The notes: generated by a model from the sequence alone, not told the origin. 64,000 bases of DNA from Alphaproteobacteria bacterium (GCA_010032545.1 RGPT01000001.1:16264-80263); one strand, 5' to 3'; positions 3 through 4,397 are shown, counted from the first letter of the stretch. Program-made: numbers and translations.

Positions 3-1346
3 TATCCGCGGCGCATCGCGCACGTGCCGCCGAACTTCAATTCGACCATCACCATGGCGCATGTCGCCAAGCATGCCGAACCCATCACGTCGGGCGCCGA
101 CATCGAGAACGTCATGCGCCGGGCCTTCAGCCTGCTGCGCAACGGCCGCGGCTCGCCGGTCATCATCGAGTTCCCGGCCGAGGCCAATGGCGAGGACGCG
201 CCCGATCCGCTGACCTACGTGCCCATCAAGCCCACGCGCTACGGCCCCGATCCTGCGGCGGTGAAGGAAGCCGCCAAGGTGCTGGTCGCGGCCAAGCGCC
301 CGGTCCTCTATGCCGGCCATGGCGTCCACTGGGCCGAGGCCTATGATGAACTGAAGGAACTGGCCGAACTTTTGGCCATTCCGGTCTGCACGTCGCTGCA
401 GGGCAAGAGCAGCTTCGACGAGACCCATCCGCTGTCGCTGGGCTCGGGCGGTCGCGCCTACCCGAAGCAGGTCCGCCATTTCCTCGACCAGTGCGACGTG
501 CTGTTCGGCGTCGGCTGCTCCTTCACGGAGACGAACTTCGGCATTTCGATGCCCAAGGGAAAGACGGTCATCCACACCACGCTCGATCCCGACCATCTCA
601 ACAAGGACGTGCGCTGCCAGTACGGCCTGATCGGCGATGCCAAGCTGGCGCTGCGTGCCATGATCGACGAATGCAGCAAGCTGGTCGGCGGAAAGAAGCG
701 CGACGCAGGTGCCGTCGTGGCCGAGATCAAGCCGATGGCCGACGCGTGGCTCCAGGAGTGGATGCCCAAGCTCACCAACAACGAGGCGCCGCTCAATCCC
801 TACCGCGTGCTGTGGGACCTCCAGCACACGGTCGACAAGGCCAACACCATCATCACCCACGATGCGGGCAGCCCGCGCGACCAGCTCTCGCCGTTCTGGA
901 AGACGACGGCGCCGCACACCTACATCGGTTGGGGCAAGACCACGCAGCTGGGCTACGGCCTCGGCCTCGCCATGGGCGCCAAGCTCGCCTGCCCGGACAA
1001 GCTCTGCATCAACGTGTGGGGCGACGCGGCCATCGGCTTCACCGGCATGGATTTTGAGACCGCGGTGCGCGAGCGCATTCCGATCATGTCGATCCTGCTC
1101 AACAACTTCTCGATGGCGATCGAGCTTCACATCATGAAGGTCTCGACCGAGAAGTACCGCTCGACCGACATCTCCGGCGACTACGCCGCCATGGCCCGTG
1201 CCTTCGGCGGCTACGGCGAGCGGGTGACCAAGCCCGAGGACATCATTCCCGCCATCAAGCGCGGCATCGAGCAGACGAAGAAGGGCGTGCCGGTCCTGCT
1301 GGAGTTCATCACCTCCAAGGAAGTGACGATCTCGACGCCGAAATAG
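3..1346 (+). CDS. Thiamine pyrophosphate-dependent enzyme (acetolactate synthase-like), 5'-truncated by the window edge
   Basis: Frame is open from position 3; middle domain PVLYAGHGVHWA; TPP-binding motif GDAA...NN (VWGDAAIGFTGMDFETAVRERIPIMSILLNN). Confidence 0.85.
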   Translation, partial: YPRRIAHVPPNFNSTITMAHVAKHAEPITSGADIENVMRRAFSLLRNGRGSPVIIEFPAEANGEDAPDPLTYVPIKPTRYGPDPAAVKEAAKVLVAAKRPVLYAGHGVHWAEAYDELKELAELLAIPVCTSLQGKSSFDETHPLSLGSGGRAYPKQVRHFLDQCDVLFGVGCSFTETNFGISMPKGKTVIHTTLDPDHLNKDVRCQYGLIGDAKLALRAMIDECSKLVGGKKRDAGAVVAEIKPMADAWLQEWMPKLTNNEAPLNPYRVLWDLQHTVDKANTIITHDAGSPRDQLSPFWKTTAPHTYIGWGKTTQLGYGLGLAMGAKLACPDKLCINVWGDAAIGFTGMDFETAVRERIPIMSILLNNFSMAIELHIMKVSTEKYRSTDISGDYAAMARAFGGYGERVTKPEDIIPAIKRGIEQTKKGVPVLLEFITSKEVTISTPK

Positions 1347-1800: not shown

Positions 1801-1849
1801 GAGGGGAGGCCTTGGCTCGCCAGGGCGAAGGAACTTGATGGAGATGCCG

Positions 1850-2908
1850 ATGACGAAGATCCTCATGCCGACGGCCGAACATGACGTCACGGCTCATGAC
1901 GGTCTCTGGATGAGTCCCGCTGATGCGGAGAAGGTCACCGGCTGGGCGCTGAAGCCCGAAGGCATGTGCCGCGCCGAACTTTGCGTGCCGATGCCGGTGT
2001 CGGCGGTGAAGGGCAGCGAAGTCGACGTCGAGGCCTTCTGGAAGAAGCTCGGCGGACCCGTGATCTCCAGCGACGCCGGCGACGTGTGGGCGCTGGGTGC
2101 GCCCGCGGACGAGCGCAATGCCGCGCTGGAGGGGCTACAGGCGCCGGACTTCACCCTGCCGGACATCGACGGCACGCCGCGGTCGCTCTCGCAGCTCCGC
2201 GGCAAGAAGGTTTTCCTCGCCACCTGGGCCAGTTGGTGAGGCTGCCGGTTTGACTTGCCCGTGTGGCAGCAACTCTACGCCGAACTGAAGGACAGGAATT
2301 TCATGGTGGTGGCCGTGGCCGAGGAAAGCCGCGGCGCGGACCATGCGCGGCCGTGGATCGAGCAGGCGAAGTCGGAGTACTGGCAGCTGATCGACACCGA
2401 CCATCGCCTCGAAGACCTCTACAATCTCGTGAACGTGCCGCAGGCGATCTGGATCGACGAACAGGGCCGGATCGTGCGACCGCCCGAGACCGCAGGCTCG
2501 ACCGATCACTTCCGCCGCATGGACCTCAAGACCAAGACCATGTCGGCCGAGGACCAGGCCGAGCGCCTGGCGGCGCGCGTGGCCTATCTCGACGCCGTGC
2601 GCGCCTGGGTGAATACCGGCAAGCACGCCCTGCCGGCTGACGTCGCCCGGGCAGGCTTGCCGAAGGTGACGCTAGAAATCGCCGAGGCGCGGGCACGGTT
2701 CCGGCTCGGTGTCTGGCTGCGCGCCCATGGCAGCACGGTCGAGGGCGATCGTCAGATGAACGAGGCGAGCAGCCTGCATCCCGAGTCGTGGAGCCTGTGG
2801 CGTCAGGCCGCCGACCTCGACGAGGTTGGCAAGGCGTCGGGCCCGGACTTCTGGAAGCGCGTGCAGGCCCTGGGGGAAAGGCCTTACTATCCGCCGCCCA
2901 AGCTCTAG
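1850..2908 (+). CDS. Thioredoxin-fold (ResA/TlpA-like) redoxin with in-frame UGA, probable selenoprotein (WASW-U-GC)
   Basis: Track ORFs 1835..2239 and 2255..2908 are in the same frame, separated only by TGA 2237-2239 at the redox-active position: APDFTLPD...KKVFLATWASW*GCRFDLPVWQQLY; start uncertain (1838/1844/1850; GGAG precedes 1850). Confidence 0.75.
2241..2270 (+). promoter_or_regulatory. Candidate bacterial SECIS-like hairpin immediately 3' of the UGA
   Basis: gctgcc (2241-2246) pairs perfectly with ggcagc (2265-2270); inner gg/cc pairing possible; not formally folded. Confidence 0.45.
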
Positions 2909-2947: not shown

Positions 2948-3049
2948 GTCGTCCTGAGCGAAGCGAAGGACCTCGCCGATCGACCAGATACGGACCATCG
3001 ATACCGAGTCCTTGGCTGACGTGAGGTCCTTCGCTTCGCTCAGGACGAC
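2948..3049. repeat. REP-like inverted doublet (short form), no ORF inside
   Basis: gtcgtcctgagcgaagcgaaggacctc (2948-2974) and its perfect reverse complement (3023-3049), 48-nt spacer; same family as 1411/1754. Confidence 0.92.
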
Positions 3050-3095: not shown

Positions 3096-4397
3096 ATGCG
3101 CCTGTCCTGGCATGACCTCGGAAAGCCGCGCGCCGACAGGGCCGACGGCAAGCCTGTCGAGATCACCGGCTTCCCGCTCACCTTGTTGCCGACAGGACGC
3201 TCCGACCGTTTCCTGATGATGGCCGAGCCCGGCTGCTGCCAGGGTTGCGTACCCAACAATCCGCAAGCAGTGGTCGAGGTCCTGGCGGATCAGCCGCTGG
3301 AACTCGGCAAGCGCGCGCTGCGGTTGAGCGGCACCTGGCGCGTGTCGTCCGATGGCGACGGTTGGCGCTATCAGCTGCACGGCGCCAGCGTGAAGCCCGG
3401 GATGACGCGGCGCGCCCTGATGGCGGCGAGTCCGCTCTTCTGTCTGCCTGTGCCGGCGATGGCGCAGGCCACCGATGGCATGGCGGTCGACATCCATAGT
3501 CACGCCGGCAACATCATCCAGATGAGTATCGGGCGCGGCCAGGCGCTCGGCATCACCGAGCCGATGCGCCAAGGCGGTGTCTCGGCGATCTGCCTCGCCG
3601 TCGTTGCCGACTCTCCGGTCATCACCAGCAGCGGCGGCCGCCTGCGGCCGGGACGCGACCCCAGGCCAGGCGAACTCTACAGCTTCAGCCAGACCTCGTT
3701 CCCGGCGCTGCACAAGCTCGCCCGGGATCAGGGCCTGCCGATCGTCCGCACCGCGGCGGAGCTGCGCGCGGCACGGTCCAGCCGGCCGTCCGTCATCGTC
3801 TCGTCGGAAGGCGCGGATTTCCTCGAGGGCCGGATCGAACGCCTCGACGAGGCCTGGCAGCGCTGGGCCCTGCGCCACCTCCAGCTCACGCACTATCGGC
3901 CGAACGAGCTGGGCGACATCCAGACCGAACCCAGCGTGCACGATGGGCTGACGGCCTTCGGCGCCGAGGTGATCCGTCGCTGCAACCAGATGGGCATCGT
4001 GGTCGACGTGGCGCACGGCCCCTATGAGTTGGTGCGGAAGGCGGCTTCGGTGACCACCAGGCCGTTGGTCCTGTCGCACACCTCGCTCAGCGACCGGCAG
4101 TCGCCGTGGACGCGGCAGATCACGTCGAGTCATGCCCGCGCCATCGCCGCCACCGGCGGCGTCATCGGCATCTGGCCGATTCCTGCCTTTTCCCCCAACA
4201 TCGTGTCCTACGCCATGGACGGCTTCGCGCGCATGGTCGACGTGGTCGGCATCGACCATGTCGGGCTCGGCACCGACCAGATGGGCCTGCCCGGCGGCAG
4301 CACGATGCCGGGCTACGCCGACCTGCCGCAGCTCGCCGCCGCCCTGCGTACGCGATTCAACGCGGAGGAGACGGCGAAGCTCCTCGGCGGCAACTAA
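3096..4397 (+). CDS. DUF3299-like N-terminal domain fused to a membrane (M19-type) dipeptidase; probably ends prematurely (natural stop 4427)
   Basis: N-term VEITGF...FLMMAEPGCCQGCVP; C-term DIHSH, SEGAD, DVAH, SHT, HVGLGTD amidohydrolase motifs; GGN-TAA-RRVFEACIG-TAG. Confidence 0.75.
   Translation: MRLSWHDLGKPRADRADGKPVEITGFPLTLLPTGRSDRFLMMAEPGCCQGCVPNNPQAVVEVLADQPLELGKRALRLSGTWRVSSDGDGWRYQLHGASVKPGMTRRALMAASPLFCLPVPAMAQATDGMAVDIHSHAGNIIQMSIGRGQALGITEPMRQGGVSAICLAVVADSPVITSSGGRLRPGRDPRPGELYSFSQTSFPALHKLARDQGLPIVRTAAELRAARSSRPSVIVSSEGADFLEGRIERLDEAWQRWALRHLQLTHYRPNELGDIQTEPSVHDGLTAFGAEVIRRCNQMGIVVDVAHGPYELVRKAASVTTRPLVLSHTSLSDRQSPWTRQITSSHARAIAATGGVIGIWPIPAFSPNIVSYAMDGFARMVDVVGIDHVGLGTDQMGLPGGSTMPGYADLPQLAAALRTRFNAEETAKLLGGN

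Follow-up and report, generated by a model that had tools for sequence, protein, structure and literature searches.

Positions 1850-2908 of the window (the 64,000-nt stretch of DNA that was analysed) most probably encode one 352-residue cytoplasmic selenoprotein, in which an internal UGA is decoded as selenocysteine (Sec) via a downstream hairpin, and which is a divergent, Reyranella-centred member of an already predicted family. The probability of this reading is put at roughly 93%. It draws on the integrity of the reading frame on both sides of the UGA, the conservation of that codon and of the RNA shortly downstream, the Sec machinery of the source genome, and the alignment of the UGA with a catalytic cysteine of known thioredoxin-fold proteins.

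A single reading frame interrupted by one UGA

The frame that runs from ATG 1850 to TAG 2908 is broken solely by the TGA at 2237-2239. The ORF that closes at this TGA and the one that closes at TAG 2906-2908 share the same frame, and the sequence, the ORF list and a translation in which TGA was read as U were concordant. The product comprises 352 aa with Sec as residue 130, and the peptide across the TGA reads ...FLATWASW-U-GCRFDLPVWQ.... ATG 1850 is the favoured start, the residues M-T-K/V/T-I/V-L being kept among the aligned orthologues; the alternative in-frame starts upstream, TTG 1835 and ATG 1844, showed no conservation in the orthologue alignment. The features of the gene are collected in Table 1.

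The coding character of the two halves was assessed by calculating the mean per-site entropy at codon positions 1, 2 and 3 in 90 distinct orthologous genes, which was 0.48, 0.41 and 1.00 on the 5' side of the TGA and 0.34, 0.28 and 0.96 on the 3' side. As third-position variation is dominant on both sides, both halves are translated in that frame. A preliminary description of the region had proposed a frame of about 352 aa interrupted by this TGA alone, with both halves intact; the concordant ORF list and translation bear out the former point, and the coding-type entropy on either side of the TGA the latter.

Table 1. Coordinates of the features assigned to the selenoprotein gene and its mRNA.
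Feature	Position	Strand	Basis or remark
Shine-Dalgarno-like GGAG	1840..1843	+	6 nt 5' of the start codon; read from the sequence
Selenoprotein gene, complete (352 aa plus TAG stop, single internal Sec codon)	1850..2908	+	One frame; orthologue-conserved start; NF041054 match over residues 21-351
N-terminal domain, ~96 aa, beta-rich, with invariant TGWxLKPEGxC40xxxxC45xP	1850..2137	+	Cys codons 1967-1969 and 1982-1984; AF2 pLDDT 90.7
Thioredoxin-fold domain of the TlpA/ResA (AhpC-TSA/Redoxin) type	2138..2494	+	Pfam, PDB profile and Foldseek; cis-Pro motif N-V-P197 at 2438-2440
UGA read as the selenocysteine codon, residue 130, at the attacking-Cys position of TlpA/ResA	2237..2239	+	118/118 Sec-type loci; TGC in Cys homologues; CxxC alignment; Sec machinery
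Alternative long-range stem CUGCC (2242-2246)/GGCAG (2265-2269), 18-nt loop	2242..2269	+	Part of the MFE fold
Cys132, probable resolving Cys of U-G-C	2243..2245	+	Invariant in alignments; aligned with the second Cys of the TlpA CxxC
Nucleotide-invariant block GACUUGCCCGUGUGGCAG, probable SECIS core	2252..2269	+	+16..+33 from the U of UGA; entropy and comparison with Cys forms
Favoured SECIS hairpin UUGCC/GGCAG, 5 bp, apical loop CGUGU (2260-2264)	2255..2269	+	All five pairs in 84/84 sequences
C-terminal helical domain, ~137 aa, weakly TPR-like	2495..2905	+	AF2 helices; weak TPR matches; present in all three paralogue groups

Conservation of the UGA codon and its cysteine counterparts

When one genome per species was scanned, 410 related stretches were obtained, and the labels of the best 80 of these were nearly all Reyranella, Reyranellaceae or unclassified Alphaproteobacteria. 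TGA occupied the same codon in every one of the 118 related Sec-type loci (84 distinct sequences around the codon), within the motif WASW-U-GCR or WAPY-U-GCS. The TGA-bearing orthologues spanned 67-88% identity, and the paralogues lay at ~50% and ~40%. A six-frame search of 60 relatives located the gene in 34 of the 36 other genomes of the genus, in each case with a single in-frame TGA, and with orthologues at 80-86% identity in 32 of those 34. The cultured strains R. massiliensis 521 (L104) and R. soli NBRC 108950 (L070) are among the bacteria that have it. The selenoprotein gene itself terminates with TGA in several orthologues; TGA is thus an ordinary stop of the same gene, and there is no code change in the genus. 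Some Reyranella genomes (loci L050-L057) hold one or two further paralogues, all with the TGA and the identical 18-nt block described below. These extra copies form a WASWUGCR(T/A) group at ~50% identity and a WAPYUGCS group at ~40%; the genome of the window has one copy.

Full-length homologues of ~360 aa were found by protein search at 60-66% identity, and the 13 that were aligned all read WASW-C-GCRFDL. The DNA of three Cys-form genes (L138, L139 and L141) was retrieved, and each has TGC at the codon that corresponds to the UGA. The preliminary description had raised the possibility that UGA alternates with a Cys codon among homologues, and this is what the comparison returned, with UGA kept in the Sec forms and TGC in the Cys forms. 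In a maximum-likelihood tree, both of the deep paralogue groups consisted of Sec forms and the Cys forms lay beside or inside the clade holding the group of the window; two Sec/Cys state changes were required. The tree, taken together with the common SECIS, suggests that Sec is the ancestral state and Cys the derived one. Of the 150 best representative clusters in which the N-terminal domain occurs, 31 stop exactly at ...W-x-x-x before the UGA, and full-length Cys forms account for just three.

A putative SECIS element within the coding sequence

The block at +16 to +33 from the U of the UGA (2252-2269) was near-invariant, synonymous sites included, in 84 unique Sec-form sequences representing three paralogue groups with a protein identity of only ~40%. 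The sole changes within its 18 nt were one U19-to-C and three A32-to-G substitutions, all of which preserve pairing. Entropy was zero or near zero at all three positions of codons 135-140 (90 orthologues), whereas the flanking codons varied synonymously. In the Cys forms, identical or similar residues are specified by different codons (L139, for example, has GAT CTG CCG GTC TGG for D-L-P-V-W), and the hairpin was missing in two of the three Cys-form genes, L138 and L141, where residues were also altered. The block is therefore frozen in Sec forms and relaxed in Cys forms, which implies a constraint on the RNA that is tied to the UGA.

The SECIS block is practically invariant, without compensatory covariation, and two stems fit it that are mutually exclusive because they use a common 3' strand, GGCAG (2265-2269). 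The local hairpin, UUGCC-CGUGU-GGCAG, was paired in all 84 sequences, and the substitutions seen (U·G to C-G, U-A to U·G) keep the pairs. In the long-range stem, pair 6-33 was broken in six of the 84 sequences and pair 10-29 in five. The local hairpin, which was never broken, is accordingly favoured over the long-range stem, and the hairpin at 2255-2269 is the probable SECIS. The long-range stem, gcugcc/ggcagc, was set aside as the favoured model, given its broken outer pairs (5-6/84), and is kept as an alternative.

The folding stability of the single sequence 2230-2310 was no better than that of shuffles (z = 0.5), so that thermodynamics by itself does not single out the element. An Rfam scan of 2150-2400 returned no SECIS or meaningful family, the lone match being a chance one to an lncRNA (E 0.08).

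Selenocysteine machinery of the source genome

The source genome is a Reyranella MAG of 567 contigs with 3.84% contamination. It contains a tRNA-Sec that scores 71.4 bits (gathering score 47) and that ARAGORN identifies as SeC(tca), together with selA (553.8 bits), selB (446.7 bits) and selD (172.3 bits), all above the curated cut-offs, so that the Sec machinery implied by the preliminary description is present in full. The sel genes of the MAG are on small or fragmented contigs: the tRNA-Sec lies ~100 nt 3' of selB on the same strand (G000:C244:992-3039; loci L001/L010), selA occupies a 1.2-kb contig of its own (C433), and contig C222 ends within selD. Since tRNA-Sec was also found in three closed genomes of the genus, the Sec machinery is not MAG contamination. 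A genome devoid of sel genes and a UGA restricted to one assembly would have spoken against a selenoprotein; the reverse was clearly found, with the machinery present and TGA in 118 loci.

A second selenoprotein of the genome is the alpha subunit of an FdnG-type formate dehydrogenase (1441 bits), whose gene (G000:C280:21185-24235, L148) is interrupted by a single in-frame TGA (...ENQARI-U-HGPTV...). The SECIS of this fdhA gene is of the textbook type, GG-U17-GGCCA-G23U24CU-UGGCC-CC.

Other readings of the TGA

If the TGA were a true stop, the region would hold two genes, one for an N-terminal protein of 129-134 aa and one for a protein of 215-217 aa started from TTG 2255 or GTG 2261. Automatic gene callers do annotate the region in this way: the public calls for the clade in the collection searched are C-terminal fragments, and 31 of the 150 best clusters end before the TGA. 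However, such a stop would sever the thioredoxin fold at its active-site motif, and the Cys homologues are single ORFs of ~360 aa. The frame is also maintained over the TGA in 118 loci with no drift, the supposed second gene has neither a conserved start nor a ribosome-binding site, and nucleotide-level conservation of the block 3' of the TGA is seen in TGA forms only. Termination at this codon is therefore considered very unlikely. That the gene is a pseudogene, or that the TGA is a sequencing or assembly error, might be suspected from the fragmentation and contamination of the MAG noted above, but the comparative data refute both: the identical TGA occurs in 118 independent genomes, closed chromosomes among them, and both halves are under strong purifying selection. 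The chance of either is negligible.

The inserted residue is not directly readable by computation, and the UGA might be recoded to Trp, or to Cys by near-cognate decoding, instead of Sec. Homologues, however, pair the position with Cys and not Trp, the genome has a complete Sec pathway and another selenoprotein, and a conserved hairpin lies at SECIS distance from the codon. Genetic code 4 is excluded, because TGA terminates the same gene in several orthologues. Insertion of a residue other than Sec is thus highly improbable, and decoding of the UGA as Sec remains the preferred reading.

Domain architecture and active site

The protein matched the Pfam families PF00578 AhpC-TSA (7.6e-17) and PF08534 Redoxin (2.2e-10), with a weak match to GSHPx, and HMMER searches against PDB profiles gave E values of 4e-15 to TlpA and 7.6e-14 to ResA, with DsbE also matched. 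In the HMMER alignments with 3kcm and 1jfu, the UGA fell on the first, attacking Cys of the W-C-x-x-C motif of TlpA/ResA, in agreement with the position that had been assigned to it from the sequence of the window. W-A-S-W-[U] was matched to W-A-T-W-C of TlpA, and the Cys-Arg that comes next to Cys-Arg/Lys; the spacing between the two is one residue shorter here, which appears as a gap in the HMMER alignment. The AlphaFold model of the protein had a pLDDT of 78 and a pTM of 0.76, and Foldseek superposed its central domain on ResA (1su9/1st9) with a target-normalised TM of ~0.72 and an rmsd of 2.1-2.3 Å. P197 of the cis-Pro motif N-V-P197 was invariant in the homologue alignments. The Prx motif PxxxTxxC(U) is absent: in F-L-A-T-W-A-S-W-U, Thr is at -5 rather than -3 and there is no Pro at -7.

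Two further domains flank the thioredoxin fold. The N-terminal CxxxxC (CRAELC) singled out in the preliminary description corresponds to C40-x4-C45, and both cysteines were invariant in all aligned homologues. Foldseek returned no significant PDB fold match for the N-terminal domain alone, the protein G B1 domains that were listed (E at least 0.65) being noise. When the N- and C-terminal parts were searched separately against Pfam, sub-threshold matches to DUF6297 and TPR_14 (E 0.074) were all that was obtained; against PDB profiles, the C-terminal domain gave a weak match to the TPR of OGT (E 3.6e-4). The C-terminal domain is helical in the AF2 model, where the helical extension that had been anticipated is visible, and is conserved across the three paralogue groups.

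The N-terminus (MTKILMPTAEHDVTAHDG...) is hydrophilic, lacks any hydrophobic stretch and forms beta strands in the model (pLDDT ~90). As it contains no signal- or anchor-like segment, the selenoprotein, unlike TlpA and ResA, is probably cytoplasmic, as judged from its sequence and model.

Proposed mechanism and function

The proposed scheme begins with the SelA/SelB/SelC/SelD system of the organism, which would read the UGA as Sec under the direction of a bacterial SECIS, an mRNA hairpin within the coding sequence 15-33 nt 3' of the UGA. The Sec130 selenolate would then attack an oxidised substrate, which may be a disulfide, a sulfenate or similar, or a peroxide, and Cys132 would resolve the adduct to give an intramolecular selenenylsulfide. 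Either a cellular thiol system or the N-terminal C40/C45 pair could then reduce this selenenylsulfide again, and the helical tail may hold a protein partner or substrate. The predicted protein is most likely a cytoplasmic selenol/thiol oxidoreductase.

The main functional rival is that the gene encodes a genuine selenoprotein that acts as a Prx/GPx-like peroxidase rather than as a disulfide reductase or isomerase. AhpC-TSA is the top Pfam match and is accompanied by the weak GSHPx match, Sec is typical of peroxidases, and the name given to the family in 2008 was 'Prx-like' (PMC2398784). Yet the Prx signature PxxxTxxC is replaced by T-W-A-S-W-U, the closest sequences and structures are those of TlpA, ResA and DsbE, and a vicinal resolving Cys together with a cis-Pro loop suits thiol-disulfide exchange. 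A peroxidase is consequently judged unlikely, although it is an alternative of some weight. A more elaborate proposal can be made, in which the Reyranella WASWUGC clade would be functionally distinct: a three-domain cytoplasmic selenoenzyme whose N-terminal CxxxxC domain, of a fold absent from the PDB, relays electrons to U-G-C, which is partnered with the upstream ThDP enzyme described below, and which uses a non-canonical SECIS (CGUGU pentaloop, no bulged U, +2 shift). Taken as a whole, that proposal is more doubtful still, and an oxidoreductase acting through thiol-disulfide exchange is retained as the working assignment.

Gene neighbourhood

A gene for a ThDP-requiring enzyme of the PRK06154 type lies upstream at 3-1346 (+) of the window (693 bits against a cut-off of 607), and its product was 81-97% identical in the five related genomes compared. 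In 95 related Reyranella loci the ThDP gene immediately precedes that of the selenoprotein, in the same orientation. The gap between the two was -4 to 131 nt in 91 of these 95 loci, nine of which have a 4-nt overlap, and this arrangement suggests that the genes form an operon in Reyranella. The gap of 503 nt in the window is attributable to the insertion of a GIY-YIG ORF and REP-like inverted repeats. As the GIY-YIG ORF was found at the same spot in just one other of the related loci compared (L064), the insertion into this tight gene pair would be recent. The synteny was absent from the ~1.5-kb flanks of the distant Sec-form loci L131 and L136 and beside the Cys forms; since it is confined to the genus, no functional conclusion or mechanism was drawn from it.

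The GIY-YIG ORF (95 aa, 1463-1750) is flanked by REP-like inverted repeats with ...GGTCCTTCG...GCTCAGGACGAC..., the region of ORF and repeats occupying 1411-1800 of the window, and a second repeat doublet is found 3' of the selenoprotein gene at 2948-3049. Downstream, a 433-aa ORF at 3096-4397 (+) had no NCBIfam match at E <=1e-5. It adjoins the selenoprotein gene in about two thirds of the related loci, and 2Fe-2S/Mo-hydroxylase genes are found instead in about a quarter.

Family placement and annotation

The preliminary description had referred to a ResA-like WAxxUGC family of selenoproteins. Such a family exists as the NCBIfam model NF041054 ('WAxxUGC_long', ResA-like WAxxUGC motif-containing protein), which the window protein matched end to end (E 1.8e-86; residues 21-351 against model positions 8-353 of 354), albeit with a score of 290.6 bits that is below the cut-off of 300. 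Other NCBIfam models (ResA, TlpA and StoA) ranked far behind. The orthologues of the window protein scored 286.9-288.9, the middle paralogue group 303.5-303.6 and the WAPYUGCS group 501.8-507.6; the last of these, which is 37-40% identical to the window protein, forms the core of the model. With 287-291 bits against 502-508, the group of the window is a divergent sister clade of the model core.

Novelty was the one point over-estimated in the preliminary description, as a family of UGC-containing TlpA-like selenoproteins was already predicted in 2008, under the name 'Prx-like' (PMC2398784), and is included in a 2026 review (PMC13188914). The UGC-motif family was reported to be commoner in non-marine samples and to have many Cys homologues (PMC2398784, PMC13188914). 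Sequence comparison places the gene within a divergent, Reyranella-centred subclade of this predicted 'UGC-containing TlpA-like' family. A full-text literature search for 'WAxxUGC' returned no paper, and the family is not mentioned in the main texts of BSepDB and deep-Sep. In a search with NF041054 of 400 evenly drawn genomes of the phylum, matches were confined to the genus itself, which indicates that the family is taxonomically narrow within the phylum. Reyranella is a freshwater and soil genus.

In the collection searched, every public protein that matched with more than 84% identity was a C-terminal fragment of ~197-226 aa (mostly 215-221 aa), some being named 'hypothetical protein', and no full-length call for the clade of the window was found above 66% identity. 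Gene callers routinely split such selenoprotein genes in two, and the clade falls ~10 bits short of the curated NF041054 threshold. Were that threshold lowered, or a sibling model built, the selenoprotein would be recovered throughout a genus of bacteria that are common in fresh water and soil. Since 2008 the family has been known solely as a prediction. Its probable SECIS is an unusually clean natural example: 18 nt are fixed among paralogues whose proteins are only 40% identical, and the constraint is relaxed in the Cys forms. What is new here is limited to a clade that falls under the curated cut-off, its fragmentary gene calls, a precisely delimited SECIS block and a narrow distribution.

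Comparison with known systems

The rule for the bacterial SECIS of E. coli was set out for fdhF, with G23-U24 (PMC8659212). Like the fdhF element, the putative SECIS described here is a small hairpin within the ORF, soon after the UGA, with G-U in its apical loop. It differs in having a 5-bp stem and a CGUGU pentaloop without a bulged U or a conserved lower stem, and its G-U is at +25/+26 rather than +23/+24, i.e., 2 nt farther from the UGA.

The proteins of NF041054 share with the window protein the WAxxUGC motif, a three-domain length of ~350-366 aa, the N-terminal CxxxxC and the SECIS block at the nucleotide level; the WASWUGCR group of the window differs in scoring just below the cut-off, outside automatic naming. 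The family predicted in 2008, compared by description, is likewise of the thioredoxin-fold AhpC-TSA/TlpA type, has UGC as its redox motif and includes numerous homologues with Cys.

TlpA and ResA are membrane-anchored proteins that face the periplasm or the outside and serve the maturation of cytochrome c, Cu-A or Sco. Compared with the C-x-x-C of these proteins, the U-G-C of the selenoprotein is one residue shorter, and the protein carries two extra domains and is without a signal or anchor. With TlpA of Bradyrhizobium (1jfu/4txo) and ResA of Bacillus (1st9/1su9) it nevertheless has in common the central fold, the W-A-x-W-[C/U] lead-in, an Arg/Lys directly after the second Cys and the cis-Pro loop, and its Sec takes the place of their attacking Cys.
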